Below are positions 6,001-29,800 of a stretch of DNA of 64,000 nt, piece after piece. Source of the stretch: Antedon mediterranea (taxonomy: Eukaryota; Animalia; Echinodermata); NCBI RefSeq assembly GCF_964355755.1, contig NC_092672.1, positions 37,640,437 to 37,704,436 on the forward strand, read 5' to 3'. The translations under genes and the position numbers were made by a program. The notes under the pieces were generated by a model, which saw only the letters and a list, made by a program, of their open reading frames with translations, was not told the origin of the DNA and searched no databases. Position 1 is the stretch's first letter, and each line of letters begins with the position of its first letter.

Positions 6001-9000
6001 AAAAATATCAACAAAATTCACATTTCACTTATATTTCAAAATTATAAAAACAATCGTTACAGTTATAAGATTGATAATAAAAGAGCAACACAACAGAGGA
6101 CACTCAGAAAATTGGGGATGGGGGTTCGCAGTAAAGAGGAGGGGGTTAGACGCCCAGGGCATAGACACCAACAGACATACTAACCTCCTGACGTGGTAAT
6201 AAGAAGCTGTGTTCTCGGTGATTGTGCTGTGGTGGCGCGTAAACCTTGCGTCAACAACTGAATTTGTGATGACCCAGGTCGACTGGTTGCAAGTATTTGT
6301 TGATTGGTGGATGACTGGCCAACCTGAGTGGTCGTTGCCAGCTGGACACCTCGTAGAATTTGTTGACCGCTAGCAGTCTGAACAATTTGCACTATACCAC
6401 CTATCAATTACAAAAAACCATATTACTTATTCATAACAACATGTATTTCTTTCTCTTTCAAAGTAAACAAAATAACAATTTAAATATAAGAGGCAAAACT
6501 CAGGAAGTATTAACATTTGAAGGTCTCCCTCCAATTAATTAACGCTTTGCATATCTTTTTCAATGTTTTTTCCCTTTTAATATATATTTCTTAAATGTTG
6601 TTATTGTATCCCATTTTGAGGTCTGAGAGAACATGATCTGATTTCTCAGTTCGTGAGCAGGGATTCTGGTTGCTTTAGGCTGTAATATGCCTCAGTACAG
6701 GGGAGTAGCCTGTATGCTGCATCTTGCAAGCCATTGCAATACAACTGGATAAACAACTATCGCATGTAAAGGTCTGTCTACACTATCAAACTTTATGTGA
6801 CAAACAAATTAGTGCATATATGGACATGTCATATTTAAGCATATAACTACCATATTTTGGCACATCAGGTTTTATGTCAAACTAGCTTAAAGCTCTGTCT
6901 ACACTATCAAACTAATTTTTTTTTAAATATGTGCTCTAATATGGTAGTAATATGACATCATGTCCATATATGGACCTACCAATGGTTAAAAATACTTTTC
7001 CTGTTTTCCTACCTTGTGGCAATTGACGTAATTGACTAGCTGGCAGAGCTATCCTTGTCCCATGCTGACCCTGTAGCTGTACCGTGATTGGATGCGTTAA
7101 AAACTGAGCACGACCACCACCCTGTTAAGAACAATCAATTTACAAAGTTGAATATTGGCAATTTGTAAATAGTAACAAAGTATATTAAACCAAAGAGAGA
7201 AATGCTACATTTTTTAAAAACACAATTTTCTCATAAGAGGTAATAAGAGTACTGTACATCAACACAACAGCGATACAAGCGGTCATCAAAAGAACACAAC
7301 GGCGATACAAGCGGTCATCAAAAGAACACAACGGCGATACAAGCGTTCATCAAAAGAACACAACGGCGATACAAGCGTTCATCAAAAGAACACAACGGCG
7401 ATACAAGCGGTCATCAAAAGAACACAACGGCGATACAAGCGGTCATCAAAAGAACACAACGGCGATACAAGCGTTCATCAAAAGAACACAACGGCGATAC
7501 AAGCGGTCATCAAAAGAACACAACGGCGATACAAGCGGTCATCAAAAGAACACAACGGCGATACAAGCGGTCATCAAAAGAACACAACGGCGATACAAGC
7601 GTTCATCAAAAGAACACAACGGCGATACAAGCGGTCATCAAAAGAACACAACGGCGATACAAGCGGTCATCAAAAGAACACAACGGCGATACAAGCGGTC
7701 ATCAAAAGAACACAACGGCGATACAAGCGGTCATCAAAGAAAACAACGGCGATACAAGCGGTCATCAAAGGAACACAACGGCGATACAAGCGGTCATCAA
7801 AAGAACACAACGGCGCTACAAGCGGTCAGCAAAGGAACAACGGCGATACAAGCGGTCATCAAAGGAACACAACGGCGATACAAGCGGTCATCAAAGGAAC
7901 ACAACGGCGATATAAGCAGTCATCAAAAGAACACAACGGCGATACAAGCGGTCATCAAAAGAAGACAACGGCGATACAAGCGGTCATCAAAAGAACACAA
8001 CGGCGATACAAGCGGTCATCAAAAGAACACAACGGCGATACAAGCGGTCATCAAAAGCTCTGTCTACACTATCCAACTAGTTTGACAAAAAATAATGTGA
8101 TGTGCCCAAATATGGTCGTGATATTCCCAAATATTGTAGCGCTATAACATCATGTCCATATATGGGCACACATATAGTTTTATAGTGTTGACAGAGCTTT
8201 TAACGATTTATTGCTTAATGATCAGTTCCTGGATAGGCCAACTTCACTAAAGCTTGTATTAAATAAACAAATAAATCTCACCTGAGGCTGGAGTATAAGC
8301 CGTTGTTGTAAAACGCCACTGGAGGGTATCGTGTAGCCAGGTAGCTGCTGCAACTGTGTGGTTGTTGGAACTGTGTGCGGTGAAACCAAGGTGACTGAAG
8401 AGGGCGCACTAATGGTACTAGCAGCTGTAGATACTGTTGTGCTTGCATTTGTTACATGCTGACTAGATACAGACAACACCAAACCTTGACAAAAAAAAAT
8501 TGTAATTTATAAATGGGCCGGTTTTACAGTTTTATGTTTACTTAGTACTTGGTCGTTGTCATCTTGAATACCCCACAAGGAAGTCTGACAAGAGGTATTG
8601 GGGAGTGGCTTATTAATTGGACACTATCTATTTAAACAGTAGCTACTTATATAACATGGCAATATTTAAACAATTTACCTTGCGGCGTTGTTGACGCTCG
8701 TTGAAGGATGGTACCAGTTGATGTCTTGATTAGAACGTGACTTACAGCAGGCGAGGCTGACCGTACAACGGGCGTGGCCGGAGTAATGGTCGCACTCGCA
8801 GTGGTAGTTGTAACAGGGGTTGAAGCAGTCGGAGAAGGTGATGCTCGACCGGTTTCTTTACTTGGAATGTGACTGAAGAGTTTGCCAGGTTTCACCCTGA
8901 CTTTGTTTGGTCTCGCTGGGGGTTCAGGTAGGGAATCAATCTCTTCTATTAGAGGTCTTGGGGTCTGTAGTTGCTTGATTCTGTGTGCAGCATATGCAGC

Positions 9001-12000
9001 TAAGTTTAGTTCATGATCAGCTAAACACAGGTTAAATGATTCAAACTTTATTTGCTGCAAAAAAAAAAAATATTTATAACATTACTTGCCAAAAAAAAAC
9101 GAATCTTAATATTATAAAATGTCTTTTAAAATGGACCTGAAATGGATTTTCGATTTTTTTCATTTTAGAATGATGTTTTGGGGGCTATTAGGTGTTGTTA
9201 GAATGTATATTGTTACAAAATATAAATTGGCCCTTTTGGGGAAAGCCCCATTTGAAAATCAAAAAAATTCGCGGGTGACGTCACTTTGCGAATATATTCC
9301 TATCCCTCCAATGGACAATTTGCAGTTTTTTGGCTATAACTCTTGAAATCTATGGAGTATTTTCTAAAAAATGCTTGTGCATTTGCAGAAACGTATTTAG
9401 AATTTTTTTAGATAAAATTAGTACCGTATAAACGGTTATTCATCGAGTAAATGACGATTTAAAATCTTAAAATCAACGGGTTTTTTCTGGCAATACCGAA
9501 GTTGGCCTGGCAACGTTGTCCGGGATACAGCTCCGTGTGCAATGATGCGTATCCATATTTTCCGTTCGTGTATTTTGTATATCGTTCGTAATTTATACTG
9601 CTAAAATGTGTTAGTTTCTTTAGTTTTTAGTTTAGCAGAATTAAATTAGTAATATGAGATGATAATTAAATTAGTAATATGAGATGATAATTTATTTCGA
9701 AAACGAATTTTATTCATATTTTACTTTGGCTTGACAATGAGCGCAGCAAGTTGTTGATATCGCTTTGGTCCTTGGATGCACATGAAACGGAGCCTCGCCG
9801 CATGATGTGGGTGGTGGATCGACTCCGCGCGCTGGATTGGGGGCCTAGGCCTAGTAAAGGTTTGGGAGGTAGGCCTTCTAAATTCGGGTTTTATAACAAA
9901 CGAAGTACATTTTAGGGACCTATATTTCAACAACATTAGATATTGAATAAATTAGTATTAGTGTCAACGCTTCGCGTATCTTTCCAGGCCGTCGATCATT
10001 CACTGACTATCGGGCGGCATACACGCTCTCGATATCATCGTGTATATGTGACGTCGTGAATATAGAGGCTTCCGACGGCCGTTGAAATAGAATATTGCAA
10101 TGGCGTGAGTAATTTTCGCTAATTTACCATGGTATCTTAAAATTTCGTTTTTACTCAAAATACTATACATTTTGTTTTTATTTGTATGGGTTTGTGTTAA
10201 TTTGATACATTTAAATAACATGTGTGCATTTCTTGAAAATCGAAATTCCATTTCAGGTCCATTTTAAACAAACATACAGTACTTAATATTGTAATAACTG
10301 AACACTGTCAACTCAAAGGTTATTTATAAAATTTTCTACTTTTATATATCAAAAATGTCAAAACTATTTAGTTGTTTTAAAACTTTACAACATGGGTTAA
10401 CTTGAAAACAAACTAAATTTAATTGTTATTTAAAAAATCTTTGATTTGTATATTTATCAGACTTAATGTTGTTTCTTAGAAAGCTCATGAACAAAATTTA
10501 GTAAAAAGAGAGAAAATGAGAATAAAATACCTTAAATGGATCATACTCAAGTGCTTTGACTACCAAGGCAGCAGTCCTGTACACTATCCCTGCCATAGTG
10601 AGTGACGACACGATTGGTCTCAATTCAAACAAGTCTGGATGGTTACACACTTTTCGTAATTGCATTAAAACATTTATAACACTCAAAAACTGTCCACTAG
10701 CTAGAGTTTCTTTTGTTCTAAAAACATAAGAGAAAAACAAAATTGAATTTCTTTTTAATGTACACATCACAAACATTTTATAATTTTGGAAAAATTGAAT
10801 TGAAAATTTAAATATGTTTGAACAGATTGTATCCTTTAGCAGGTATCCGAATAGAAACATAGAATTCTTTCCAATGTTTATCCAAAGGACTGGTTAATAT
10901 CTCCCCTATGAAACGGCCAATGTGAAAATGGTTACGATCTCACTTGGTAGCTGGAGGGGATTTAAGCATCTACTTAAGTTACATGCAATAATCAACTTAC
11001 TTAGTTCTAGACATGAAATCTTCATAGAGGTAGCGTTGTCTCTTGGATAATCTACACGTTACAATATGTTCATATTTCTTTGGTAGCTGTTTTTCAACTT
11101 CAATTTTCAATCGACGTAATAGAAATGGTCGCAAAACCTAGGGAAAACAATTTATATTGCTTGAAAATTGTAATACCTTCAAAGTATGAAGAGTACTGGG
11201 CCACCTTATAAGTATGAAGAGTACTGGGCCACCTTATAAGTATGAAGAGTACTGGGCCACCTTATAAGTATGAAGAGTACTGGGCCACCTTATAAGTATG
11301 AAGAGTACTGGGCCACCTTATAAGTATGAAGAGTACTGGGCCACCTTATAAGTATGAAGAGTACTGGGCCACCTTATATTGGTCAGTTACAACACAGCAT
11401 TTTAAAGAAACCAGTAAATCTTTTGGAAGAGTAGGGGTACCCCGGTGTACTGGTCCATTCAGCCCCTGTCGCTGTGTACAAACAAACAAACAAAGGGACC
11501 CTTACTTAGGGGAGTAGAAAGTTGTGTTATGTTTCATCCACACCCGTTGGCCATTTCGCTTAGTAGGCTGCAAGTCACATTTCATTCCCCCATATACATT
11601 ACAATACTCAACAGAGAAATTAATTTATTCTAGATCCCCACCCCTACACCTTCAATTTGTTTACACCCACTCTCGGCTACACCTTCAATTTGTTTACACC
11701 CACTCTCGGCTACACCTTCAATTTGTTTACACCCACTCTCGGCTACATGCCTGAACACAACAGATAACTTGTAATGCAATCAACTACCTACCTTATGCAG
11801 CCGTTTGATCAAGCCTTCATTATAATCTGTATTCCCTTCTATCATTCCCGTCACTGGGTTTGCAAACCATTCCTTGAATTCCCGATGGGATTGGAAGACA
11901 TGGGGCATAAGGAAATGCATAAGAGACCAGAGCTCCATCAGACTGTTTTGAAGCGGTGTACCTGTGAGTAGCAGACGACGCTGACTGTTGAAATTCAATA

Positions 12001-15000
12001 ACGTTTGCCACCTACAAACCAAAAGAAAGGTATCATTGTAAATGTTCATCTGGTTTCTAAATAACAATGTGTAAATATATGACCCTGTGTGTGTGTGTGT
12101 GTTATAATCTCGTAATTCGTACCATTGGTTTGATAAAAAGAATTTTTTACACACAATGCAAGGTAATTTGTAATATCTTTAGGGCTATTCCAAGATTTTT
12201 TTTGTGTGAAAAAAAAAGAAGAAAATGCAGACTCCAACTTAAATGAGAAGTATGAATGAATAATTATCAATAAGTTCAGATTGTATCCTTTAGCAGGTAT
12301 CGGAATAGAAACATATAATTCTTTCCAATGTTTATCCAAAGGACCGGTTAATATCTCCCCTATGAAACGGCCAATGTGAAAATGGTTACGGTCTCACTTG
12401 GTAGCTGGAGGGGATGTTCTTCAATTTATTTTAGTTCCATTCAAAATAGAAGATTGATTCACTAACAATTTAAACCAAAAAATAACAAAAATACAAACCT
12501 TTGCGATTTAAAGTTTTTAATATTTTGTGCTTCATCCAATATAAGATATTTCCACTTTTTTCTTCTAAATGCTTGATGGTCCTGTATCACTAATTGATAA
12601 GAAGTGATACAAACATGAAATGCATTGCACTTTGTCCAACCCTACCAAACAAAAATAACAATATTGAATCTAATGCTCTGTCAAAAAAATGTGATATGCT
12701 CAAATATGGTAGTAATATGACATGTTCATATTTGGGCACACCACAATTTTTGTCACATAAAGACACTACAAATAGAAAATAATATTGAATCTAAAGCTCA
12801 ATCTACACTATCGAACTAGTTTGACAAAAAAAAGTGTGATGTGCCCAAATATGGTAGTCATATGACATCATGTCCATATATGGGCATATCACATTTTTTG
12901 TCACATAAATTTTGATAGTGTGGACAGAGCTTAACTTGCAATATTCTTTGAAGCAGTTTTTATATTTTAAATTAGTTACAGATTGTATAATTTGGCAGGA
13001 TCTAGAATAGAATTATAAACATCAATGTTATGCTCTCATTTTAATAATTATATATTGTTTATGTATCCTTTAGCAGGTATCAGAATAGAAACACAGAATT
13101 CTTTCCAATGTTTATCCAAAGGACTGGTTAATATCTCCCCTATGAAACGGCCAATGTGAAAATGGTTACGGTATCACTTGGTAGCTGGAGGGGATTAGTA
13201 TACAAACACCGTGAAATCTGTGGCCAGAGGCTTACTAAGTGTTTATGACTAAGTTTCTCATGATCAGCAATTTAAGCATGGTTGCAGCTCACCTGTCGTT
13301 TCTGCTTCCTTTCTTTTTGGTTGCCAAAATAAGTGAGAATTTTAAAAGCAGGACACCATTTCTTTAATTCCATCTCCCAATTTAACATTACACTAGTAGG
13401 AACAACAATTAGATGAGGTCCCCATATACCTGTACAAAACAATGCATTCAAATGATAAATAACACCATTATTATACATTTGCAAAAAGAAAACTATATAG
13501 ACTGTAAAATACTGTATAACACTATTAATCATACCTTTGCGAAAACAAAATGATATAGGTTATAAAATACTGTAATTGTTGCAGCTAAAAGAACAATAAG
13601 TATGTACTTACCTTCTTCACAAGCAAGATGTGCTAGTACTGCTATTGTTTGTATTGTTTTTCCTAAACCCATTTCATCAGCTAATATACCATTTAGTCGC
13701 TTCTCATGCATTGTTACAAGCCAGTCTAACCCAATGTGCTGGTACTCGCGTAATGTATGTCGAAGAAGAAATGGAACTTTTGTTTTAACCTGAAATGAAA
13801 TACACACCTAGAGGGGTCAGTGATCCATTAGGCGCTATATAAATACTGTTTATTATTATTTTATTATATTTGGTTATGAAATATGATTCTTGTTGCATAT
13901 ATTATAGTGTACATGCTGTAAAATCTTGATTTTATATATTTCACCTCATTATTTGTCTTTGTTTTAAATTTCCTTCGCATCGCACAGCAAGAAACTCGCC
14001 AATTACAGGATGGATAAACTATTTTATAATTTATTGTGCTTATACTAAGTTTCATTTGATGTTTTGGGAGTGGAGTAGTGAGTTACAACCCTGGCACTAG
14101 GTCAGAACCCTAAGTTTCATTTGATGTTTTGGGAGTGGAGTAGTGAGTTACAACCCTGGCACTAGGTCAGAACCCTGGACATTGGGATTGGAAGGCAAGC
14201 ATGCTATCCACCAATCCAATAAAAACAAAACATGGTAGAAAAAATGCGACACACTTGTAATAATCTCAAAAGAAAAGCAAGAACCGTACCGCAGTGGTTT
14301 CTAGTGTATATCCTGTTGGCTGGATACTCTGAGCAGTGGCTGCAAATTCTGTTATCTCATTATTTGGACTGCTATCACTTGAACTCTGACAAAACAAAAG
14401 TTTAATGACTATGAATATATATATATATGTCAAAGATAAACTTTGTCATAAAATGTAAATACATTGAGAAAAGTGTTTTTCTTGGCAAGATAAGATAAAG
14501 CCTATGTAAATACAGTTTATCACCGATGATGGTAGAAGAGTTGCAGCCATGCAATAAATGTTAACATCAGGTTAGTTTAAAAGATTTTTATCAAATCCTT
14601 TATTATACATTTCGGAAATATGTCAAAGATTTTGAAATTTTTTACATTATTCACAACATCACCTAAAAAGTTGGAAAGCTCTCCAAAAAATCCGCAAAAA
14701 CAGCAGATGATATAAACTACCGTACTGAAAACTGTTTTAATATTTAGTCAAGTCATCCATTTGTAAATATTTTAATGCATTTTAAACCTCATTACCTACC
14801 TCTTCAGTTGGTTGCTTATTTTCTTTGTCTGGATTAAGCAAGTACTCAATATCCATTGCCTCTTTACTACTTTCCTCTTTATCTTCAATATCTTCCAATT
14901 CATCATATTCATCCGATTCGTCTGTATCTTCTATAAAAACAAACATAATATTTTGATTTATGAATTATTAAATATTAAAAGATACAGGGATTATGTTTAA

Positions 15001-18000
15001 ATAAGGTTTTGTTTCCTCAAATGACAAAATCACTATGATAGATGTATCCTTTGGCAGGATCTAGAATAGAAAGATAGAATTCCTCCTAGGTTTTATCCAA
15101 AGGACTGGTTAATATCTCCCCTATGAAACGGCCAATGTGAAAATGGTTACGATCTCACTTGGTAGCTGGAGGGGATTAAACAGTCGTATGTCTCTTACAA
15201 TTTAAAATATAACAGCAAATTATCAGTACTTTACTTTGAGATAAATAAAGAAATGAATTAAAGACACTACTGTGGAAACTGAACATGTTTTACCTATTTC
15301 AATAGTTATTATTTTCATGTTGCACTGCGAGACTCCGAGCGCTATATAAATGTTGGATATTATTATAATTATTTATTACAGAGCAATGACCTCACCTTCA
15401 GTAATAGTGTCATCATCATAATCATCCTCCTCTTGTTCATCATCATCATCACTATCTAACTCTGCCTCAAACTCGTCATTATACGCTGCCGCATATTTCT
15501 TCATCAGATCTTCAATAGATAGCTCTCCCTCGGCAGCTAGTTCATCTAATTCTGCTTTGTGGTCTTGACATCCCTCTGCATCTTCTTGTTCTTCCATTGT
15601 TTCTTCGTCATCAACAACTTTTAAAAGAATTTAGTTTATTTAGGATTTAAATTATATTTCTTTATTAATAATTTAAAAGTACAACAAAACACATGTTAGT
15701 GTGTATCCTTTAGCAGGTATCAGAATAGAAACATAGAATTCTTTCCAATGTTTATCCAAAGGACTGGTTAATATCTCCCCTATGAAACGGCCAATGTGAA
15801 AATGGTTACGATCTCACTTGGTAGCTGGAGGGGATTTAAAGCAAGTTTATTGTTTTACTAATTTAACTTTTTAAGTTGAATTCATACTCACTGCTAGCCT
15901 CCTCTTCATCATCAGTTGGAACAAACTCATTGTCTTCCTTTTCTTTTGATTCCTGAAACAAATTAAAATCAAATGTAAAAATAAAAAGCAACGTAACTAA
16001 TGACAGCCGTAATTGATTCTATGCTTTGTTCTTTATTTTAATTTATTCAAGAAGACTAACAAATCGGAAATGAGGAAGAGCAACAATATAAAATAATAAA
16101 AGAAATGAAAATAAAATCATGTAATCTGTATTATTAATTCAGACATTTAGTCAGCAGTCATGGAATTCCTTAAAAAGTTAATTTTTAATTTAAAGTAAAG
16201 GTCATATATTCTTCAACAGGTCACACAATGTATGTTAATAGAAAATGAGGTTAACCATACATTGCTGTATTTTGACCATCTGGTTTTTAAATATTTGGCA
16301 GTATAATAACCCAAAGTATGTTACCTTTGTTGGGGCTTTACTTGCGTCTAATTCAGCAGGTTTTTCTAGGATTTCAGGAGGGAGACTATCTAGTAGTTCT
16401 TGTATAGGTAACTGACTTTCCTTCTCAAGCAATTGCAACTCATTCTCTTCTGATTCTACATTTGTTCCCGCCTCTTCTTCTTCCACTCGTATCGTTGTTT
16501 CATCGTCTGACTCTTCATCTTCAGGTTGGAACTCCGCATCTGAATAAATAACAAAATTAACGTGAGGGCTCCAGGAAGTCTTTCATTGCTTCCGTTTAAA
16601 AGTGTGTTATGTATTCTATAATAATGGTGATACTGTAGTGTTAGTATGTATCCTTTAGCAGGTATCAGAATAGAAACATAGAATTCTTTCCAATGTTTAT
16701 CCAAAGGACTGGTTAATATCTCCCCTATGAAACGGCCAATGTGAAAATGGTTACGGTATCACTTGGTAGCTGGAGGGGATGCTAATGAACTATGTACTAA
16801 AATGTATTTATTTTATTCAGTCCACAACCAACAGCGATCAAACCGCCACTAACAGGTTGATCTAAACATAATAAACTATAATAATATATTCATATAAGCA
16901 ACAATAACATAAACAAAGATTGGAACATTATAGAGATTTAACAATTTTATCCTTAAATACATTTAAACTATCATAAATGAATCAATAGACATTTAATTTT
17001 TCTAAAGTGAAATTGCTAGACTTACCATCTTTTGGTGTTTCACCTATAGACCTTGTAGGGCTTGATGGGACAGATCCTATAGATGAGCCAGTAGTACTGA
17101 CATTCAAGCCTTCTGTAAGCCAGGAGGAATACTTCTCAGTTTGTCCAACAATGAAATCAAGTTGTAAATCAAGAGCCTTTTTCCTTCGCTCATCTAATCG
17201 ACTTTGTTGTTTGTATTGCACTACCTATAAAACAAAAAAATGATAAAAACATGTCTGTAGTTTTTACGAGTGTGGGTGGGTACCAATTTAAACAGGATGC
17301 AAATGTTTAGTCTTGAAAATAAACATAAATAAATATCCATTATAATGTAAGATCAAATTAAATACAAAAGAAAGCAGTTGCCTTTCTTTTGAGAGTGATA
17401 ATCTATTAATTTACGAAGCATTTTACGAGCCAGGCATTAAAATGTCAATGCTAGCCCCTGCCAATGCTTCGATGGAGTACAATCATTCTTGATAAGTTGA
17501 TATAGGAATGAATCTCACTGTAAAATCTTGTTGACTACCTCCCTACCCTTCGTAAAGGCTACCCATATGAATTTCTTTGTGAGATTGCCTCTTGACCACC
17601 CTTTGTATTTGCTATACTGTACATACTTAGAATATCTTCATACGATTGCTTCTATCTAAACGAACCTTTTCAATATTTGACCAGAACTGTTTAATTTCTT
17701 TGGCAATGTTGCTGGCTATCTTCCGCATTCTGCTGGCTTCATCTCGTTCAGCTTTCAGCATTTTAGATCGCTGTTCCTGGTGATGCTTAGCAACAGCTCT
17801 TGCCATCTATCAAGAAATAGTTAACAGAGGATAGTTGCCATTCAAAAGCTTCCTTAATTTGAGAGGCGGCCATTTTGGTCACTAATTATAATCATTAATG
17901 CTTTGCTTTTATTTGAATAATTATAAATTGTTTATTTATGTATCCTTTAGCAGGTATCAGAATAGAAACATAGAATTCTTTCCAATGTTTATCCAAAGGA

Positions 18001-21000
18001 CTGGTTAATATCTCCCCTATGAAACGGCCAATGTAAAAATGGTTACGATCTCACTTGGTAGCTGGAGGGGATGACGTACTGAATTGTAATGGTTTTACCT
18101 TTCGTGATGTAGCCTTTTTCCAACGTCTCTCACCAGCAAAATCTGCAGCTAGCCATTGCATCTCCTCAAGTAGGTAATCCCAGTGAGTCTTGTGCCTTGG
18201 CGGTTCCTGGACCTTAGGCAGTCGACGGGCAGACCACACACCTTCTTTTCTTAACTGACCTATTCGCTGCATAACATGCGCCTCCTACAAATTGTAGAAC
18301 AGCAAAACACCTCGTTTGAATCACATACTATCATTTACATTATTTTAATCTTTAACATAGTTGAGATGTATATTATAATTACAAAATTAAGATATGTGGA
18401 AAATGTACAAGTAATTAAATAACCCTGAAATACGGTTACATTTTAATGGTTTTTTTTGTTATGCCTTTCTGTACGTTTAAATTTTATGTGTAGTTTGGAT
18501 GTGAATTTGTCTACTTTTGATCAGTCATTTTTAATGTTTCAATCCTTGTAATACAATATTTTCAGACTTTTTTCTGCTTTTCGTAAATGTTTTATACATA
18601 CATAAATGTTTACATTTACTTAAAAAATATTCAATACCTGTTTAGCACGTTCTACAATTTTCTCCTGTGCTCCGATGCCCACTAGAGAGTTTTGTCGTCC
18701 AAGAGGATGGCGCCCTGCTGATGGTGGCGTCAACTTTCTTATTGATGATGGCGTCATGCTTTTTTGGGACGACATGATGGACGATGTGGGCGTAGGCGTT
18801 GATATAAGATTTGTTGGCCGGGATTGAAATTGATTGGATGCATTTGTAGGTTCTATAGAACAAGGAAATCGATATATTGTAGCTTTATACCACGAGTGAA
18901 TGTAAAAATGGCAAAAAAATAGATTGTGTTTACAATCAGGTATATATTAGTTTTTGATTTAGCAACATTGTTCTAAAAAAATTAGTATTAGTATTGTAAG
19001 ATCAAATTAAATACAAAAGCAAGCAGTTGCCTTTCTTTTGAGAGTGATAATCTATTAATTTACGAAGCATTTTACGAGCCAGGCATTAAAATGTCAATGC
19101 TAGCCCCTGCCAATGCTTCGTTGTTGAATTCAGGGGTATATACACAACCACACAACCAGTGGAGGCATGAACCTTTTGATCTGTGCAACACGCTTTAATT
19201 AAAAATAAAATTCTGCAATTAAAATAGACAAATGGTTTACCAGTTTTCTTGTGTTTGGTTTCTGATGGTATAGACAGGCTTATGGATACTGGTGTGGTTG
19301 CAGTCTTTGCAACCTCTAAAGTTACTTCTAGTCGGGATTCTACAACACCTAAAACAACAGAAAGGAAATAAACATTAAAACAAGTCTTTCTACACTGTCA
19401 AACTAGGTATCCCAATGAAAAAATTCAGATTAATTTTTTTACATTTTCTTTCAGTTAACCATAAAGAACTTAATGTAATTAGCATTTTGCAATTTAAATG
19501 ATTGAAATCCGATTACCCGTTCTAAAGTTATGGTTATTTAAAGTGGTAAAAAAATATACGATTTTTTGCCTAAAAATGGTGTTTTTTGCAGTTGAAATTG
19601 GAAGCATTTTTAAAAGGTTATAACTTTTACAATAATTAGTTAAAAGTTTTGAATTTTGTTAAACCTATAGATATCACAGAGTTGTACAACTCTATTTTTT
19701 TTGGAGCCTCAACGAAACCTATTTTTTAAATTATTGGTCCGCAAAGTGGTAGGAAAGCATTTAACGCCCATTTTTGCTGGAATTCCCTAAAAAATGAAAA
19801 AACTGCAATTTTTCAATGATCTGTAACTTTTGAACTACTGTACTAATTCATTTAATTTTTTTTGTACTTGTTAGAATGTAGTGTATATTTCATTAATAAA
19901 TATATTTTAGATGTGTATATGAAAAAAAATATTTTTTTTAATGGTGAAATTTAAAATTATAAAAAAAAAAATGAAAAAGTATGTTAAAAACGGTGTGTAC
20001 TGTTTCCTTTCTTTTACACTAATTTTCGGTAAGTATAATTATTAGAATATTTTAATATACTTTATATTTATAATTTCAATCATAAATACTATTATATATA
20101 ACTTTTGAATACGTAAAACAAGATTTTAGGCCCATATGATTATGACACCAAATCTAAGCTAAGTAAGATATGCTCTTTTAAGGCAAACGCACAATATGGG
20201 TCAAAATAAACTCATTTAAAATAATCAATGTTAATTAAAACAATTAATTGTTTACCTGAATAGTATATATAACATTATAAAAATTGTTTTCTTTTCGTAT
20301 TATTACGTTATTAAATTGAAATACGGAGCTAAAGTTTAGGCCAAGTCACGGCTTACTCGCGATCAGTAGTCGCTCCCGTTAAAGTATTTCGGTCGCAGTT
20401 AATGACTTTCGGCCGCCGTATACAGAGTCAAATGTAACGTTGGTAAATTAGCTTAATAAATTTCCTCGGTACATTTTAACCTAACGCATTTGCATTGTAT
20501 ACTTGCATAATAAATCTTCCGCACATTACATCAATTTTAAGTTGTTAAATTAATGTGTAAAACCAGATATTCTGCGACGGAAAAGGACATGTCAATCTCC
20601 GACATCGCTGCTGTCATCACACATCTCGCGTCGAGCCGGTCGAACTCGAGCGAGGAAAACTAAACAACGTGTTCAAAATATGGAACGTACCATTCGCTGA
20701 TAGGGTGCATTAATGTATTTAACGGAAAACGCCACAACAAACACGCGCGTATTTTAGAGTACAATATTTTACTCACTACAATATTCACCGGATTATAATG
20801 GTTGGATCTTTAAAATTTTGAACGGGATTTACGCCTCATGCACCATTTTAAAATGTAGTTCGCACAATTACCATGCACAATACGTTTGTAAACTATGTTT
20901 TATCGATTTCAATGTAGATTTAGCTATAATTTAATACCAAAATCCATAATATTTTTCCATAAACGGTGAATCAAAATTGGATTTTTGTCACAAAAATTGA

Positions 21001-24000
21001 CTTTTCGTTACGAAAAACCTATTTATAGAAGACGATTTTCGTATCAAATTAAAGCTTATTTAAAGCCTGATAACATACAACAAAAATTAATCCGCTAGCT
21101 CCAATGGTAATCGTGCGATCGTGTTTTGAAAACTTATGGGGATTTTCCGATGAGGTTTTCAACGCGCGGAAATCGGCTCGACGGGATTTTAGAACCGTTT
21201 TAAAATCGCATTTTCTCGGCAACTAATTCATTAATTTTAATTATAAACACACTTATACATAGATTAAAACAAGTACTTTCAAACAATATAAATTTTGTAA
21301 GTATTAATTAAGATTGAATACGATTTATTTAACATCAAAGTCATACTACTTTTTCGAATTTCGTCAATATTTCAAAAGTGATACCCCTCTGTGCGCTTTC
21401 ATTGGGATACCTAGTCAAACTTTATGCGACAACAAAATTTGATTTGTTTGAACGAGTTAAATACAAAGATAGGTATCAATCCTTTCTCTGTGAATGAGTA
21501 ACATTCAATTTCTTTACGAAGCATTTTACGAGCCATACAGTACAGAAAGAAAATACTGCAACTTTACCTACGAAGTAGCTTCGTAGATAGAACGTAGGCT
21601 ACGTTGTTGGCTTCGTAGGTTCCATTGTTTGGCTTCGTAACCTCAATAAACAACTTTCAATGAGCTACGTTCTGAACTTCGTAGGGAGTTCGTAACCTAA
21701 ATAAACAACCCTACGATGTTCTTAGTGAAGTAAGGTGTGAAATTAATGTGTTAAATTTAATTGGCGGAGGACAAAGTTGTAAATTAATAAAAAATAAATA
21801 ATATTTTGTAATCGTAATATTTTCCTTCGTGCGTGTTTACCTACTCAACGGCGAATATAAATATAAATTTCCCACAATGTATAACGTAGAGAGAGACACG
21901 ATCCAACACCGGTGAACCGCAACGAACAGGCCAACTAATATAATAAACATAATATAGCGAACGTCACATCCAGAAACGATGCCGAGAAAAAAAGATCGTA
22001 AACAATTCATTCTAAATATAGCATCAGGACGTTCAATCGGTCGCTCAAAAAGACTGCCGACAGAAGACCGTAATTAATACAGACCTAGTTTTTTTTTGGT
22101 CACATGGCATGAAATGCGATACTCTCTGCTTACCGCAATCTCTCACATGTTTTTTTTACTCAGTACGAGCTCGACGAGAGAGTGGCTACCGTCTGACGAC
22201 GATAAAACAGTAATTAAGATCGTGTACCTGGATTTTGTGTCACATGACATGAAACATAATACTCTCTCTCTACTGTGCTCAGCTCACATGTTTTTTCCCC
22301 TCCAAATTCTGGTCGGGTCTTTTTCTTTATACATGTCGTAATCATTTAAAAAAAGGCCTATTTATGTATGTTAAATCTTAATATGGAATATATATTTATT
22401 TTGCATATATTTTGTTGGTGTCCTAGCGTAGGTGTCGTTGTTTTTATAATTCGCTAACCCAACAAGGTAGGAATAAATAATTTATAGTGTAGGCCTAGGC
22501 CGCCGAAACAGGCTAGGCCTAGCCTCGACTCTCTCTACGTGAGCTGAGGTCCACCGGCCCGATGTCCGTCCAAATTAGGATAACCGATGCGTAGGGCGGC
22601 TACAAAAATTGACCTACTATCTTTAGGTAGGATTTTAATTAGCAAACAATACATTGTTTGTTTGCATTGTCCATGCTTCTACGAACCACCCTACGATCGA
22701 GGCGTAGCCTAGATTTCATAACAATACATCGTAGGCTACGAACAATACATCGTAGGTAGGAGAGAACAATACATCGTAGGCTACGAACAATACATCGTAG
22801 GAGAGAACAATACATCGTAGGCTACAAACAATAGATCGTAGGCTACAAACAATACATCGTAGGAGAGAACAATGACCTACGTTCTACCTACGATCTACCT
22901 ACGAAAGCCTACGCGTAGATACGAAGCAGTAATTTCTTTCTGTACTGTACATTAGGTTATTCAATGCCAACCCCTGCCAATGCTTCGATAAACTACCATA
23001 CCAACTCTTAGCATTATTCTTCAACGGAAATAAGTTAAGTAGTATAGCAAGTACAGTAGAACCTGTGTTTTACGCACCCTAATTTTACGTACGCTTATAA
23101 AAGCTGTATAAATACTGTACTTTTTTTTTTTTAGGCCTCGCATCTTGCTAGCCTGGCCTGAATAGTCTAGGCAAGGCCTAGCTAGTGACCACCTGCATGC
23201 TGTACAGTAAAGTAGGCCTAGGCAAACACGGTAGCCTTTATAGCTACGATCTCTATGTATTTGGGGACAATTTAAGGTCAACCTGGATTTTAAAAATCTC
23301 TTGTTTTACGTACGCCTTTAGGTCACGTACCGTACGTAAAATGACGTTCCACTGTAGTATTTATTGCTTTCCAAGAACAGTACAATTTATAAAACAGCAT
23401 AAATATTTGATTGAAAATAAACACATAGAATAATACAAACATTAAACTTGAGAAATTAAACAAGCAAAGCAGGGGCCCTTTAAGCCCCCCAAAGGGGTCC
23501 CAATAAATTTAGCCTGAATTGTTTGATGGATTGGAAATGCATACCTGCTACAGGTTTATGTGTTTCCTCTTTAACCTTTGTTTTTGGCGGCTCTTCACTC
23601 TTACCGGTAGTAGAATCATCTAGGCCTGCTTGCGCAATAGTTCTCTTCCTGTCACTAGATGCCGCCGGAGGTGTCGACACAGTTGTTGCAGCTATTGTCT
23701 TTGAACTATTGCTACTAGAACTAGAGGTCTTATCTGAAGATGATGATTTTGACTAAAAAGACAAATACATTGCATGAAACTGCTTTTTCCATTGAATCAA
23801 TGAAAATATCATACAATAATTACCAAGATGTATCATTTGGCAGGATCTAGAATAGAAACATAGAATTCTTTCTAGGTTTTATCCAAAGGACTGGTTAATA
23901 TCTCCCCTATGAAACGGCCAATGTGAAAATGGTTACGGTCTCACTTGGTAGCTGGAGGGGAAGGTAAATAATTATGACATATGTTCAAAATTACTACGGC

Positions 24001-24968
24001 AATAAAATATATATTGATTTTTCCAAGACAGACATATGCTAGACCATTTTCAATGAGCAGAATCTTACCTTATGTGAATCACTGGACGACCTCCGAACTC
24101 CACCAGACCCGTCTAGAGCCTGAGCCTGAAGAAAGCTTACTAGTTGAGGCGTCGGCCTTTTTCTATACGCAACAAAATCCATCATGTTCCCATCTTTTTG
24201 CAAGAAAAATAGTTCAATTAAATTCTCAGTATAATTTTCTTTGAGTTCTTTGAGTTCACGCTCTTTTCGTAAAAGGACGCACCTTCGTAGTTCAAGTAAA
24301 TCATCACTACGAGGATTGTCTGGTAATTGTACTTGCATTTTTAACATCTTAGATGATGGATGAGAAGGCATGTGACTTGCATGGGATGGGCTCCCTGTGG
24401 CTGGACTCTTTCGGGTGTTTGAACTTCGACCTGAGCTTACATTTCCTGGTCGCTTGTGAGTGGTCAGCTGGCTTGTTGTTATCGCCACAGGTATGTTCAT
24501 TGTGCTTAACCCCTGTGTGTTTTGGAACTGCACAGTCTGAATAGTCTGCTGAGGACTGGAACTGACCACATTCACAGTTTGAGGAAGTTGCAGAAGGCGC
24601 CCGTGTTGTAAAATTAAGGGTGCCTGACCGCTCTGGACAGAAGAAGTTGCATCGAGTATGCTACCTGATGGACTAACGGGCACCTTTATGAAACTTGGCT
24701 GTGGGGTACCCTGGTTTGCGAAGTTCCCAGTTCTCCTTGGAGTTCCTTGTATAGATCTAATTTGGGATCCAGTTTGCTGTGTATTGATGGTAGCAACACC
24801 TGCTGGGTTGACCAGTTGTTGTTGGGCCATGATCAACTGGAGTTGGTTTTGAGTTGATGAGGAATTTCCTTGATTTTGATTCATCCCAGAGGCTGCAGCA
24901 GCAGCAAGCACCGATTGGATAATATCGGCCGGTTGCTGAGAGGGGGGTTGTCCATTTCCACGTTGCAT
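58..24968 (-). CDS. SRCAP: SRCAP/domino (SWR1-family SNF2 ATPase, H2A.Z exchange), 5' part; continues beyond left edge
   Basis: HSA-region exon ([33 protein letters not shown]), SNF2 motifs [58 protein letters not shown], followed by the S/T/Q-rich insertion typical of SWR1-like ATPases. GT-AG exons read by eye: 24069-24968, 23545-23752, 19241-19348, 18638-18852, 18099-18284, 17666-17806, 17026-17224, 16325-16539, 15892-15952, 15396-15617, 14800-14930, 14290-14385, 13612-13789, 13293-13429, 12499-12641, 11792-12011, 11001-11137, 10531-10717, 8679-9054, 8282-8484, 7013-7121, 6185-6400, 5176-5367, 58-518. Confidence 0.95.
1520..2560 (-). mobile_element. L2/CR1-type LINE reverse transcriptase fragment (degraded)
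   Basis: ORF 1593-2399 with [31 protein letters not shown]; frameshifted continuation [12 protein letters not shown] is typical of L2/CR1 ORF2. Confidence 0.85.
2706..4417 (+). mobile_element. 5'-truncated RTE-clade LINE with (TAAG)n tail and 8-bp TSD
   Basis: RT motifs [48 protein letters not shown] (ORFs 2944-3192 and 3387-4391, with frameshifts/stops). 3' hairpin cccacttaatagtggg, tail taagtaagtaag, TSD tttggtca at 2698-2705 and 4418-4425. Confidence 0.9.
5395..5817. repeat. 38-bp minisatellite (gttgatataataaatgttgataagttgatatcattaat)
   Basis: About 11 near-perfect tandem copies. Confidence 0.95.
5846..5980 (-). ncRNA. Candidate intronic box H/ACA snoRNA (single copy)
   Basis: Minus strand: hairpin UGGCCA..AGCAUG..CAUGCU..UGGCCA with internal loop, H box AAAUUA, second hairpin closed by CUUUA/UAGAG, ACA three nt from the end; 135 nt; sense to host. 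Confidence 0.55.
6602..6760 (-). ncRNA. Candidate intronic box H/ACA RNA (single copy, 5' end uncertain)
   Basis: Minus strand: H box AAAGCA; 3' hairpin AUCCC/GGGAU with pocket UGCUCACGAA / ACCUCAAAAU and upper stem CUGAGA/UCUCAG; ACA 15 nt below the upper stem; sense to host. Confidence 0.5.
6770..6975. mobile_element. Degenerate/partial copies of the ~150-bp agctctgtctacactatcaaact MITE family
   Basis: Two left-TIR copies (tctgtctacactatcaaact) plus internal atatggtagt / catgtccatat motifs shared with full copies. Confidence 0.7.
7260..8056. repeat. 32-bp minisatellite (aacacaacggcgatacaagcggtcatcaaaag)
   Basis: About 25 tandem copies with no spacers. Confidence 0.95.
8056..8198. mobile_element. 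~150-bp MITE (PIF/Harbinger-like family)
   Basis: TIRs agctctgtctacactat / atagtgttgacagagct. Confidence 0.8.
9130..10263. mobile_element. Non-autonomous TTAA-inserting DNA transposon (Kolobok-like)
   Basis: TTAA-aatggacctgaaatgga ... tccatttcaggtccatt-TTAA; no long ORF. Confidence 0.8.
10825..10961 (-). ncRNA. Box H/ACA snoRNA family 1, copy 1 (subtype a)
   Basis: 137 nt, two hairpins with pockets, H box AUAUUA, ACA+3; in intron 10718-11000. Confidence 0.88.
11182..11377. repeat. 28-bp minisatellite (aagtatgaagagtactgggccaccttat) x7
   Basis: Perfect tandem copies. Confidence 0.95.
11378..11520 (+). mobile_element. SINE fragment with Deu/Nin-like core
   Basis: taaagaaaccag...gaagagtaggggtaccccggtgtactgg matches the core of the SINE at 61440 and resembles the Deu-domain consensus as I recall it. 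Confidence 0.55.
11644..11746. repeat. 33-bp tandem repeat x3
   Basis: ctacaccttcaatttgtttacacccactctcgg repeated. Confidence 0.9.
12279..12415 (-). ncRNA. Box H/ACA snoRNA family 1, copy 2 (subtype a)
   Basis: Near-identical to copy 1; in intron 12012-12498. Confidence 0.88.
12795..12931. mobile_element. ~140-bp MITE with TAA TSD (PIF/Harbinger-like); partial duplicate at ~12674-12760
   Basis: taa-agctcaatctacactatc ... gatagtgtggacagagct-taa. Confidence 0.8.
12981..13012 (-). pseudogene. Remnant of a family-1 subtype-b snoRNA 3' end
   Basis: tgtataatttggcaggatctagaatagaa matches the ACA end of copies 4 and 8; the rest is missing. Confidence 0.65.
13059..13195 (-). ncRNA. Box H/ACA snoRNA family 1, copy 3 (subtype a)
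   Basis: Near-identical; in intron 12642-13292. Confidence 0.88.
14046..14217 (-). mobile_element. tRNA-derived SINE head fragment with internal ~65-bp duplication
   Basis: Minus strand ggattggtggatagcatgcttgccttccaatccc...gggttctgacc resembles A/B boxes; ctaagtttcatttgatg...aggtcagaacc occurs twice. Confidence 0.5.
15040..15176 (-). ncRNA. Box H/ACA snoRNA family 1, copy 4 (subtype b)
   Basis: Same 5' hairpin; 3' hairpin has compensatory changes (CUAGGA/UUCUAG upper stem, UUUGG/CCAAA lower stem); in intron 14931-15395. Confidence 0.88.
15699..15835 (-). ncRNA. Box H/ACA snoRNA family 1, copy 5 (subtype a)
   Basis: Near-identical; in intron 15618-15891. Confidence 0.88.
16644..16780 (-). 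ncRNA. Box H/ACA snoRNA family 1, copy 6 (subtype a)
   Basis: Near-identical; in intron 16540-17025. Confidence 0.88.
17343..17471 (-). ncRNA. Box H/ACA snoRNA family 2, copy 1 (subtype a)
   Basis: GAAGCAUU/AAUGCUUC stem with pocket GGCAGG / CGUAA, H box AAAUUA, 3' hairpin AGAUUA/UGAUCU with pocket CACUC / AUUU, ACA+3; in intron 17225-17665. Confidence 0.85.
17936..18072 (-). ncRNA. Box H/ACA snoRNA family 1, copy 7 (subtype a)
   Basis: Near-identical; in intron 17807-18098. Confidence 0.88.
18992..19120 (-). ncRNA. Box H/ACA snoRNA family 2, copy 2 (subtype a)
   Basis: Almost identical to 17343-17471; in intron 18853-19240. Confidence 0.85.
19404..21413. mobile_element. 2-kb non-autonomous DNA transposon (TAGG...CCTA termini) inserted into a MITE remnant
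   Basis: 17-bp TIR taggtatcccaatgaaa / tttcattgggataccta; flanking duplication gtcaaac(t), 7-8 bp; the empty site restores ctacactgtcaaactttatgcgac of the ~150-bp MITE. Confidence 0.85.
21442..22988 (-). pseudogene. Family-2 snoRNA copy 3 (subtype b) interrupted by a 1.4-kb transposon
   Basis: 21442-21537 joined to 22950-22988 gives a near-identical copy of 25082-25215. Confidence 0.85.
21538..22947. mobile_element. Non-autonomous TIR element with TA TSD and ctacga/tcgtag subterminal repeats
   Basis: TA-cagtacagaaagaaaatactgc ... gcagtaatttctttctgtactg-TA; superfamily uncertain (Tc1/mariner-type or CMC-like). Confidence 0.88.
23054..23354. mobile_element. pogo/Tigger-like MITE
   Basis: TA-cagtagaacc..ttttacg ... 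cgtaaaatgacgttccactg-TA imperfect TIRs. Confidence 0.65.
23826..23962 (-). ncRNA. Box H/ACA snoRNA family 1, copy 8 (subtype b)
   Basis: Matches copy 4, with one mismatch in the 3' lower stem; in intron 23753-24068. Confidence 0.85.
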
Positions 24969-25081
24969 AATTGGGTTTTTTTAACTATAAAAATAAGATT
25001 AGTTTTAACAATAACAGTAATTCTTGCAAAACCGACTAGATTGTAAACAAATAGGTGACAAACATATAATATAATCATTTT

Positions 25082-25215
25082 CAATGTTTGAATGAGTTAA
25101 ATACAAAGAAAGGTATCGATCCTGTCTCTGTGAATGAGTAACATTCAATTTCTTTATGAAGCATTATACGAGTCATACATTAGGTTATTCAATGCCAACC
25201 CCTGCCAATGCTTCG
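25082..25215 (-). ncRNA. Box H/ACA snoRNA family 2, copy 4 (subtype b, intact)
   Basis: Same pockets as subtype a (GGCAGG/CGUA; UACUC/AUUU) with rewritten stems (UUGAAUG/CAUUCAA), H box AAAGAA, ACA+3; in the intron upstream of the ATG exon. Confidence 0.85.
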
Positions 25216-25588
25216 ATAAACTAATCCATACCAGGGGATAGTATAATAACTAAGCCTCTAGCTAGCTTGTCTATACATTTACATTGCTACATCAAGCCCA
25301 CCACTTTCTTTGGTATATCAATTATCATTATCAGACAGTGAGTGACAAAAAAGGAAGCATTTTTTCACCAACAAAATGTTATAGGAGATTGAATAATACA
25401 TGCAAGCAGTATGCTACTATTCTAATGATGTACATGACCTAATTCAACAACTCTAGGTCCAGGCTTGCAAAGGTAGCCCTCCTAAAGTTAAGCCACTCTT
25501 TACCCTTAGACCTACTGTACCACGGGGTTTCCCTCTACTCATGAATGAGCCCTCTGGAGAACATACAAACCACGTAAGTCTGACTCAC

Positions 25589-26819: not shown

Positions 26820-29800
26820 TCATTTTTGGGATGGAAGAACTATGCTAACACTATCACTTGAATCACTGTCTTCTATACTGTTAATTAATTCATTTTCTAC
26901 TGACTCCTTGTGTTTTTTGTTGATAAGTTTTCTGTTCCTCTTCCAATGATTATCGAGAAAAGAATCAACTACAGTTTTTTGTAATCTTTTCTCATTTTTT
27001 ATATGACCATCATAAGCCCAAGTTTCTGGAATGGGTGCTGTTTTATTCTTCCAGTCTTCAGCTAAAAAAAAATATTAATAGAAAGAGGTTTATATTTTCG
27101 GGGGAAAGCAATTTGTAATAGATGGGCTATCAACAACATGCAAGCACATTTTGGAATAAATCATTTTAAAATGATTTAATAGAGATTTTTGTTTACACCA
27201 CTATGATGGTTCAAGATTTTACATTAATTTGAATAAATTGGATGGATATACTCTTACCTTTGTCGGGAAACCCTCTGGATGAAAACTTCCATTTCTGAAG
27301 AAATTCTTTGTTGCTACCACCGGACAAAAGTTTAGGTGCCACAGAGCAGCCAGTATCAAGCTGGATAATACATCGTTCTGACCTTTGACATAGGTCATCT
27401 TCAGAATCTTGCCAATTCTCAACACTTGCCACTGTTTCTTCACTGTTTTTCTTAGTTGCTAATGTTTCACTAGAATGTATATGATCACCGACAGAAACAT
27501 TATTATCAGATGAAGCTATTTCATCAATTATTAATTTACCTTCACTTCCAACACAGCTCTCATCATTATTATTTTCACAAAGTATTATATCATCTTTATC
27601 CTCATCTTCTGTCAAATTTCTTTCAAGGTTACTTTGAGACATTACCTTGTACATATTAGTAATTGGATTTTTTTGTATTATTATTTTTGTGTCATTTTTG
27701 TACACTGGATTTTTCTTCTCAATAACAGATTTTTGTTGAGATAAACTAATTTCATTATCCATATGTGATTCTACTCCTGGTAGTGACTTCATTGTCTCAT
27801 TTTGTGTCTTATTCTCTGCCATCTCCATTCCACCAACTTTATTTTCTGGTAATTTCTCTTCTTCAGGAATATTTTCTGGTAATTTCTCTTCTTCAGGAAT
27901 AGTTAAATTCATCTCACTATTTAACAACTCATTTTCTTTTCTTAGACTATTCTGTATATTACAATTGTTAATGCCGTCTATTTGGTCATCTCCAATATCA
28001 ACAACTTCTACTTGTTGTTCAGGAATCATTATATAGCTTTCATCTTCATTTCTCGGAGTTTCAATAAAGGATGGTTTTTCATCTTTCTTTTTTTTCTTTT
28101 TTGAATATCTAGATTTCTTTTCTTCGATATTACTATGATCATCAAAACTTTCTGTAACAGTTTCGTCTGAATGTTTATATTGTTCCAATTCCATTTGTTC
28201 AACATCACTAGAGCATTTATGTTTCTTTTTCCTTGTCTGTTGGTCAACCACAATGTTTTCAATAATATTGTTAATAATAGAAGTAATTTCTTCACCGTTG
28301 TCAACACTTGAAGGTGAAAACAATTCTTCTGATTCTGTATATAAATCTTGAGCATCAGTTGAGCGTTTTCGTTTCTTTTTTTTCTTCTTTTTAAGTATAA
28401 TATTTTCTTCTTCAGGAATGTTACATTCATTAGCTTTCTTAACTATTTTTTCTTCATCTAGACTTGATTTTTTGTGTTTCTTCTTTTTCTTTCGTGCAAT
28501 ATTTTCCCCAATTCCCTCCATTTCATTTGCTTTTTTTTCTTGTTCATTTTCTATTTCCTCTTCAGAAATGTTACCTTCATTAGCTCTATCAACTATTTCT
28601 TCTTCATTTGTTACTGTTTTTTCAACTATTTCTTCTTCATTTGTGACTGTTATTTCATGACTTGTTCTTTTGTGTTTCTTCTTTTTCTTTCGTGCAATAT
28701 TTTCATCAATTCCCTCCATTTCATTTGCTTTTTTTTCTTGTTCATTTTCTATTTCCTCTTCAGAAATGTTACCTTCATTAACTCTATCAACTATTTCTTC
28801 TTCATTTGTTACTGTTTTTTCAACTATTTCTTCTTCATTTGTGACTGTTATTTCATGACTTGTTCTTTTGTGTTTCTTCTTTTTCTTTTTCTTTCGTGCA
28901 ATATTTTCATCAATTCCTTCCATTTTATCTGCCTTTTTTTCTTGTTCATTTTCTATTTCCTCTTCAGAAATGTTACCTTCATTAGCTCTATCAACTATTT
29001 CTTCTTCGTTTGTTACTGTATTTTCAACTATTTCTTCTTCATTTGTCACCGTTATTTCATGACTTGATCTTTTATTTTTCTTCTTTTTCTTTTTCTTTCG
29101 TACAATATTTTCCTCAATTCCTTCCATTTCATCTGCTTTTTTTTCTTGTTCATTTTCTATTTCCTCTTCAGAAATATTATTACATTTATTAGCTCTATCA
29201 ACTAGTTCTTCTTCATTTGTCAATGTTATTTCATGACTTGATCTTTTATTTTTCTTCTTTTTCTTTTTCTTTCGTACAATATTTTCCTTAATTCCTTCAA
29301 TTTCATCTGCTTTTTTTTCTTGTTCATTTTCTATTTCCTCTTCAGAAATATTATTACATTTATTAGCGCTATCAACTATTTCTTCTTCATTTGTCTCCGT
29401 TATTTCATGACTTGATCTTTTATTTTTCTTCTTTTTCTTTTTCTTTTGTGCAATATTTTCCTCAATTCCTTCCATTTCATCTGCTTTTTTTTCTTGTTCA
29501 TTTTCTATCAAATTAAGGTTTACTTGTTTGTCATTCAAACTGTCTACTTCATGATTCTCATTTTCTCTTATTTTCTCCGATTCAATTTCAGTCTGCTCAA
29601 CTACTACAAGCAACTTATCTTCACTTTTTTGCCTTTTTCGGTTACTTTTAATAAAATCAGTTTCCTCATCTAGTTTTCGTTTTGATAGTGTTCCTGAATC
29701 TTGCTCAGTACTACAAATTTCTGTAGAAGTGTTTTTATTGTTTTTCCTTTTCTTTTTCTTCTTTTTATGTTGCTTTCCTATGATATCTTCACTTATTTCT

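Follow-up and report, generated by a model that had tools for sequence, protein, structure and literature searches.

Eight intronic copies of a likely dual H/ACA guide RNA in the SRCAP/domino gene of Antedon mediterranea

What is the element that recurs, one copy per intron, in eight introns of the SRCAP/domino gene of the echinoderm Antedon mediterranea, and which RNA positions might it guide? The question is raised by a stretch of 64,000 nucleotides (nt) of contig NC_092672.1 (assembly GCF_964355755.1, positions 37,640,437 to 37,704,436), here called the window, within which the copies of this element, unit A, were counted. [quoted passage not shown]

A repeat search of the window found one family of eight dispersed copies, and BLAST with one copy against the window gave eight full matches (92–100% identity) and one partial match at 12981-13012. 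A covariance model built from the eight copies gave eight matches above 167 bits in the same 64 kb, with two further weak ones (E-values 0.13 and 0.5). The initial annotation, made from the letters of this DNA, had described eight copies of 137 nt; their number and positions stand, and the length is 136 nt when the first stem base and the third base beyond the ACA box are taken as its ends, the 3′ end being set at the point where similarity between copies stops. Six copies differ from one another at 2–8 of 136 positions, and the two variant copies, at 15040 and 23826, show 5 differences between them and 13–19 from the six. Among the eight, 23 of 136 columns vary, including positions 85 and 117 of the 3′ pocket, and 16 of these columns fall in the 3′ hairpin; the 5′ pocket, the H box and the ACA box are free of any change in all eight. 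The copies are as follows, with the evidence for most of them.

10825..10960, minus strand: unit A, six-copy form, intron 17 (BLAST, host model, covariance model)
12279..12414, minus strand: unit A, six-copy form, intron 15 (BLAST, host model, covariance model)
12962..13012, minus strand: remnant, the 3′ end of a variant-type copy (ninth, partial), intron 14 (BLAST, copy comparison)
13059..13194, minus strand: unit A, six-copy form, intron 14 (host model, copy comparison)
15040..15175, minus strand: unit A variant, SNORA26-type pocket in the 3′ hairpin, intron 10 (host model, Rfam, copy comparison)
15699..15834, minus strand: unit A, six-copy form, intron 9, the reference copy for sub-features (Rfam, host model, fold)
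16644..16779, minus strand: unit A, six-copy form, intron 7 (BLAST, host model, covariance model)
17936..18071, minus strand: unit A, six-copy form, intron 5; a contig of run X1 shows the removal of this intron by splicing
23826..23961, minus strand: unit A variant 3′ hairpin, intron 1; the lower part of the 3′ stem has a single broken pair

The host was modelled by mapping five SRCAP-like proteins, chosen from 120 listed, to minus-strand exons.

8282..24984, minus strand: SRCAP/domino, the host, modelled with 20 exons and running on beyond the model to lower coordinates

The model has GT-AG introns and an open frame of about 1420 amino acids, with 49–50% identity to the SRCAP-like protein P0011 over the aligned part. 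Sixteen splice variants are compatible with it, and none shifts any unit A copy out of its intron. The copies occupy introns 1, 5, 7, 9, 10, 14, 15 and 17, one each and all on the host sense strand, just as had been proposed, and lie 73–417 nt from the 3′ splice site. For intron 5 the splice is seen directly: a contig from run X1, which we guess to be RNA, has a joint 17806->18099 with CT..AC ends that removes the intron together with copy 17936. In an X1 contig, exons 15396-15617 and 16324-16539 are separated by 60 letters, in agreement with a 61-nt exon, and another contig of this run spans 24069-24985. Run X1, which consists of contigs, has none across copy 17936 itself, a result that weighs neither for nor against an RNA of the unit. 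Introns other than those seen in these contigs are taken from the gene model.

All eight copies fold, on the minus strand, as hairpin, H box, hairpin and ACA, the arrangement first read from the sequence. Single-copy folds of three copies gave z-scores of -3.0, -3.5 and -3.4, with none of 200 shuffles as stable, and the plus strand of one copy gave +0.5. With the 5′ pocket kept open, 97.9% of 288 cells are paired across the copies. Features of fold and sequence expected of an H/ACA RNA are present: a two-hairpin fold on the sense strand, an ANANNA hinge, an ACA three bases before the end, and bipartite pockets predicted to pair around an unpaired U-N, 14–16 nt from the box. Spacing in the six-copy form is 15 nt from the 5′ pocket to the H box AUAUUA and 14 nt from the 3′ pocket to the ACA. 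When hairpin-H-hairpin-ACA arrangements of -32 kcal/mol or below were sought blindly, the 20.6 kb gene region yielded 13 sense-strand matches, all eight unit A copies among them, and the remaining 107 kb of strand yielded 8. In the reference copy the parts lie as follows.

15823..15828, minus strand: 5′ pocket, left strand CCAGCU (target scan)
15784..15789, minus strand: 5′ pocket, right strand CGUUUC, beginning 15 nt ahead of the H box (target scan)
15769..15774, minus strand: H box AUAUUA, of the type ANANNA (sequence; invariant in 8/8 copies)
15750..15753, minus strand: 3′ pocket, left strand AAAC (target scan)
15714..15718, minus strand: 3′ pocket, right strand ACCUG, beginning 14 nt ahead of the ACA (target scan)
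15702..15704, minus strand: ACA box (sequence; invariant in 8/8 copies)

Which uridines these pockets might address was examined on rRNA of other eukaryotes, namely nine rRNA sequences from four eukaryote ribosomal DNA (rDNA) loci bounded with Rfam. The best site for the 5′ pocket is the equivalent of yeast U2944 (6+7 base pairs (bp), two of them G-U; score 12, the next site 7.5), and 3 of 300 shuffled pockets reached the same score anywhere in one full rRNA set. The initial assignment of CCAGCU/CGUUUC to this site, human U4491, is thereby upheld. For the 3′ pocket of the six-copy form, taken as fixed, the best site is the equivalent of yeast U2975, a position that we take to lie in helix 93, with 5+4 bp and no G-U. 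The pocket AAAC/ACCUG had been assigned to this site, human U4522, for the unit as a whole; the site and the spacing agree, and the pocket itself is that of six copies of the eight. In the variant copies it reads UAAAAC/AUCCUG; both 3′ forms retain complementarity to the U2975 site by different means. All 40 eukaryote rDNA stretches examined (contaminant contigs, the four scanned loci among them) have the two target uridines at a distance of 31 nt; having been collected using the target motif itself, they indicate that the site is widespread and do not imply universality. Contig L001, from a viral collection, opens (positions 1-140) with eukaryotic 28S sequence linked to phage genes, and is probably a chimera of assembly.

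Guides for these two sites have been described in several lineages. In yeast, snR37 guides U2944 (helix 90, A site) by its 5′ module and also scaffolds the pre-60S particle with Upa1-Upa2, snR42 guides U2975, and U2944 corresponds to human U4521 in newer numbering (PMC13015370). The human ACA10 (SNORA10) is assigned to 28S 4491 and 18S-210, SNORA63 to 28S 4491 and 4390, SNORA26 to 28S 4522 and SNORA27 to 3694 and 4522; Xenopus uses SNORA26/SNORA27 for U3651 and ACA10/SNORA63 for U3620, sites likewise 31 nt apart (PMC6984369). ACA27 is hosted in RPL21 (PMC6466398), the microsporidian orthologues of ACA10/snR37 and ACA27/snR42 are separate (PMC5499648), and for the Neurospora and Entamoeba guides of the U2944-type site the table passages list no second target (PMC2780460, PMC3542256). 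That yeast and human employ separate snoRNAs here had been said in the initial annotation and is confirmed; its list lacked SNORA63 for 4491 and SNORA26 for 4522. The fly has Psi28S-3405a-d, four tandem copies on 3R (28.60 Mb), and Psi28S-3436a/b on X (6.74 Mb), both multi-copy and 140–143 nt long (PMC4430873, PMC13228274). In fly numbering the old position equals the new minus 70 (A2589 = Am2659), and fly 3485 corresponds to yeast 2953; because of these offsets, 3405 equals U2944 within one base and 3436 lies 31 further.

No Rfam family matched anywhere in the window at its gathering score, and the individual hairpins of unit A resemble known families below threshold, which was the outcome of the Rfam check proposed at the outset. 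The 5′ hairpin aligned at 27.5 bits (E 0.002, threshold 50) to TB9Cs4H2 (RF01558), a trypanosomatid family whose consensus pocket, CCAGCU/CGUUYY, agrees with that of unit A. The 3′ hairpin matched SNORA27 (RF00443; 14.9 bits, threshold 64), and its variant form SNORA26 (RF00568; 23.0 bits, E 0.024, threshold 40). SNORA10, SNORA63 and snR37 were not among the Rfam matches of unit A at E up to 10. SNORA26 (HBI-6) and SNORA27 (ACA27) belong to clan CL00032, and variant unit A has the SNORA26 consensus UAAAACC and AUCCUG, whereas the six-copy 3′ pocket is one base shorter per side. Support for the putative 3′ target comes from this resemblance. Yet SNORA26/27 have an unrelated 5′ hairpin, and SNORA27 has a second target, U3694, and RPL21 as its host. 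Yeast snR37 and Neurospora Nc ACA15 likewise use the 5′ (H-box) hairpin for the U2944-type site, whereas SNORA10 and SNORA63 differ from unit A in the partner pocket (18S U210 and 28S U4390, respectively). The extra internal branch and Upa1-Upa2 sites of snR37 are without counterpart in the plain 136-nt fold of unit A.

Several results weigh against reading unit A as a dual guide. At 9 bp, the six-copy 3′ pairing is not significant alone, 24 of 300 shuffles scoring as well, and a freer scan requiring a closed upper stem left the U2975 site outside the top six, although that scan was noisy on divergent rRNAs and was set aside for target calls. In the variant copies the right strand pairs over 3 nt only, followed by a bulge or mismatch. 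The 40 of 40 agreement comes from loci picked by the target motif, the 28S pairings were computed on other eukaryotes' rRNA, and the RNA itself is known here from DNA alone. Covariation is thin: of 36 pairs, both partners are altered in 1 and a single partner in 6, which is weak evidence because the eight copies are young paralogues. Finally, a degenerate pattern made of both pockets, the ACA and a set distance to the H box matched 20 metagenome stretches, none with an H/ACA fold by eye and none matching model R1; 20 is about what chance would give and animal DNA is scarce in the collection, so that this carries little weight, and helix 1 of R1 was off by one column.

The proposal that one RNA serves both sites draws strength from each hairpin resembling a family with the same pocket; the six-copy 3′ pairing is weak on its own, and the dual function is a prediction. 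H/ACA RNAs are released from introns, trimmed and bound by dyskerin, Nop10, Nhp2 and Gar1, and unit A would follow the same path: each copy would leave with its spliced intron, be trimmed to about 136 nt and bind these four proteins. The RNA likely joins, by shuffling, a 5′ domain of the ACA10/snR37 type to a 3′ domain of the SNORA26/27 type. Shuffling of antisense elements, movement from intron to intron and transposon-destroyed snoRNAs have all been described (PMC6984369).

How the copies spread can be read in part from their surroundings. Conservation stops at the RNA edges in most pairs, as the claim of sharp boundaries and unrelated flanks had it, with the exception that copies 13059 and 17936 have about 50 nt of 3′ flank in common (score 40; top of 150 shuffles 15); three other flank pairs of the 56 tested, upstream or downstream, score 17–19. 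In intron 14 the flank of copy 13059 leads directly into the variant-form remnant, about 50 nt downstream. Because of this shared flank and the remnant, the pattern points to DNA-level copying that would have overwritten or displaced older copies. The variant form is likely the older and the six-copy form derived, because the variant pocket equals the vertebrate one, a polarity taken from that resemblance and no outgroup. Unit A likely spread from intron to intron, first in a SNORA26-like form, of which two copies and the remnant remain, and then in a derived form whose 3′ pocket is tidier, found in six copies.

Multiplication within SRCAP/domino is, by analogy, a known phenomenon, and here the copy number is high. 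SRCAP is presumably also the host of SNORA30 in Xenopus. Four SNORA30 copies lie there inside 8.5 kb (PMC6984369), and for the Me28S-A2589 copies of the fly the host is named as dom (PMC11014333). A 9 kb segment of fly 2R (21,325,219-21,334,299) holds Psi28S-3316a-e, Psi18S-841a-d, Psi28S-3378, Psi18S-1389a/b and the Me28S-A2589 copies, and the H/ACA guides are assigned to dom by those coordinates. The fly dom arrays and Xenopus SNORA30 differ from unit A in guide and in 28S target, and its eight copies exceed the five and four in dom. The eight-fold amplification is real, but it is not special, since fly dom and the tandem Psi28S-3405 also have multi-copy guides; that it ties guide dose to SRCAP transcription, as the initial annotation had it, is a conjecture.

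Most copies might be neutral products of gene conversion or of copying between introns; some may be silent, and the copy number would be under no selection for dose. We regard this as a real possibility, if one we do not favour, and it is compatible with the dual-guide reading. Birth and death of copies are visible in this very gene, in the unit A remnant and in a transposon-split copy of a second H/ACA-like family described below, and high identity may mean youth or conversion. Fly dom copies are reported at 29-731 and at 4-38 transcripts per million (TPM), up to 25-fold apart (PMC4430873, PMC13228274), and because of this difference the dose does not have to follow from the number of copies multiplied by transcription of the host. 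On the other hand, the eight full copies retain both boxes and the 5′ pocket, most stem changes preserve pairing, and conservation ends, for most pairs, with the RNA.

A further question is whether the pocket pair is already on record, in fly Psi28S-3405a-d, in Psi28S-3436a/b or in some other invertebrate guide, which would make unit A a homologue in another host. This concerns novelty, and we think it rather unlikely. The two fly families, compared here by names, lengths, coordinates and TPM alone, address by numbering the same two sites, 31 apart by name, and are multi-copy and of similar size, each known here by a name with one target. Against this, each of the two families has its own name and its own locus, both outside dom (2R 21.33 Mb), and unit A has no full-length Rfam family at threshold. 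A guide with both targets was not found in the literature covered, from which the key fly paper and the tables for C. elegans, plants and fission yeast were absent; a main-text literature search for the fly guide names returned no papers, and passages of PMC5824354, PMC7033134 and PMC8351944 hold nothing on a joined pocket pair. The joined pair therefore looks new in the tables examined, while the H/ACA kind, dual guides, pocket shuffling and host-gene arrays are already known. Unit A would add an H/ACA family that Rfam lacks, and a clean case of antisense-element shuffling with two generations of spread in one gene.

Less probable again is that unit A is a real H/ACA snoRNA in which only the 5′ pocket is active, in some or all copies, the 3′ hairpin being a SNORA26-type relic or its two forms differing in activity. 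The 5+4 bp of the six-copy pocket, matched by the shuffles mentioned above, and the concentration of variable columns in the 3′ hairpin, pocket positions included, would suit this view, and inactive predicted pockets are on record (PMC6984369). Both 3′ forms nevertheless stay complementary to the same site, the variant pocket equals the SNORA26 consensus, and the ACA spacing is canonical, all of which favours the dual guide.

A bolder version of the dual guide, to which we give little credence, would have one ribonucleoprotein grip both ends of the helix 90-93 strand of a single pre-28S molecule as a folding clamp for the peptidyl-transferase centre, with eight copies meeting a stoichiometric dose and the joined guide being ancestral and split in vertebrates and flies. 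About 17 free bases would separate the two pairing tracts on 28S. If this were true, two pockets would do what snR37 does with extra helices and proteins; otherwise the view of H/ACA action is unaltered. Even the plain dual guide raises the question of whether such an RNA can replace the Upa1-Upa2-dependent snR37 and whether close pockets cooperate.

That unit A is a dispersed repeat, such as a short interspersed nuclear element (SINE) or a miniature inverted-repeat transposable element (MITE), complementary to rRNA by chance, can hardly be entertained, near-identical, sharp-edged copies in a repeat-rich region notwithstanding: all eight are sense and intronic in one gene with none strong in the other 47 kb, and there is no consistent target-site duplication, words shared across copies being 4–8 nt and A/T-rich. 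One sample had three DNA-like runs, in which the contig common to the copies reached depths of 73, 2123 and 234, as compared with about 12, about 290 and 28-45 for unique sequence. This is about 5–8 times single copy, whereas the bin in which a high-copy repeat with MITE-like inverted arms lies reached about 10,000 times (depth 187,437 in run X2); contig depth is no true copy number, and only this contrast of four orders of magnitude was used. Nine of ten loose-end rows at unit A match, by eye, flanks of the window's own copies, and in the tenth two contigs are mixed into one consensus. Depth and flanks thus fit about eight copies and not a dispersed repeat; the randomly oriented insertions with target-site duplications named at the outset as grounds for rejecting the snoRNA were absent from the window and from read depth. 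The high-copy MITE-like repeat behind this contrast lies, in both orientations, at 12683-12943, 6758-6981, 8050-8199, 46925-47100, 54013-54174 and 62479-62570.

The same gene carries a second family, B, of four H/ACA-like copies in two subtypes, which the initial annotation overlooked.

17344..17472, minus strand: family B, intron 6 (host model, blind scan, fold)
18992..19121, minus strand: family B, intron 3 (host model, blind scan)
21442..22990, minus strand: family B, intron 2, split copy (21442-21537 and 22950-22990)
25082..25216, minus strand: second subtype of family B, upstream of modelled exon 1 and probably in an intron of the 5′ untranslated region

The two copies folded gave z-scores of -6.1 and -3.5. 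The split copy is interrupted by an insertion of 1.4 kb at about 21538-22949, multi-copy by depth, which has terminal inverted repeats and is flanked by TA at either end, a Tc1/mariner-like signature. Intron 2 holds another element, about 2 kb long, whose ends are inverted; it lies at about 19402-21416 and is also multi-copy by depth. The 3′ pocket of family B pairs by 4+7 or 4+6 bp, 15 nt from the ACA in all four copies, with 18S position 835 in L020, one of the rDNA sequences, which we assume to be insect-like; 16 of 300 shuffles are as good, and the site is carried by one 18S only. Its number is near fly Psi18S-841, which also has four dom copies, and family B may share that target, as a lead only. 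Its best Rfam matches are SNORA79 and SNORA49 (about 22 bits), snopsi18S-841 is not among the matches listed, and the target scan gave no convincing rRNA site for its 5′ pocket. Were family B orthologous to Psi18S-841, the link of guide and host would be common with insects; together with unit A, it would extend SRCAP/domino as a snoRNA-multiplying host to a further invertebrate lineage. A further candidate, C, at 6602-6734 on the minus strand in a probable SRCAP intron, has a fold z of -1.8, a score within the background range, SNORA16 as its best Rfam match (E 1.3) and no convincing rRNA target in the scan. A C/D box scan of the SRCAP/domino introns gave no candidates.

The neighbourhood of the gene is varied. 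Upstream of SRCAP, at 27211-30366 on the minus strand, lies an open frame of 1051 amino acids with internal repeats of 58-68 amino acids and runs of K and E. An SPT6 gene occupies 47000-63000 (minus strand); the best matches of one of its exons, at 64–68%, are hemichordate, echinoderm, cnidarian and amphioxus proteins, and its C-terminal exon at 47096-47566 has GMTPRQ-type repeats, which to us resemble the C-terminal repeats of SPT5. Between the two, at 36743-39109 and 40249-42794 (minus strand), are a BTB-kelch-like gene and a pair of hAT-like transposase-type frames, named by eye from their translations. Reverse-transcriptase frames are found at 1593-2399 and 3225-4391.

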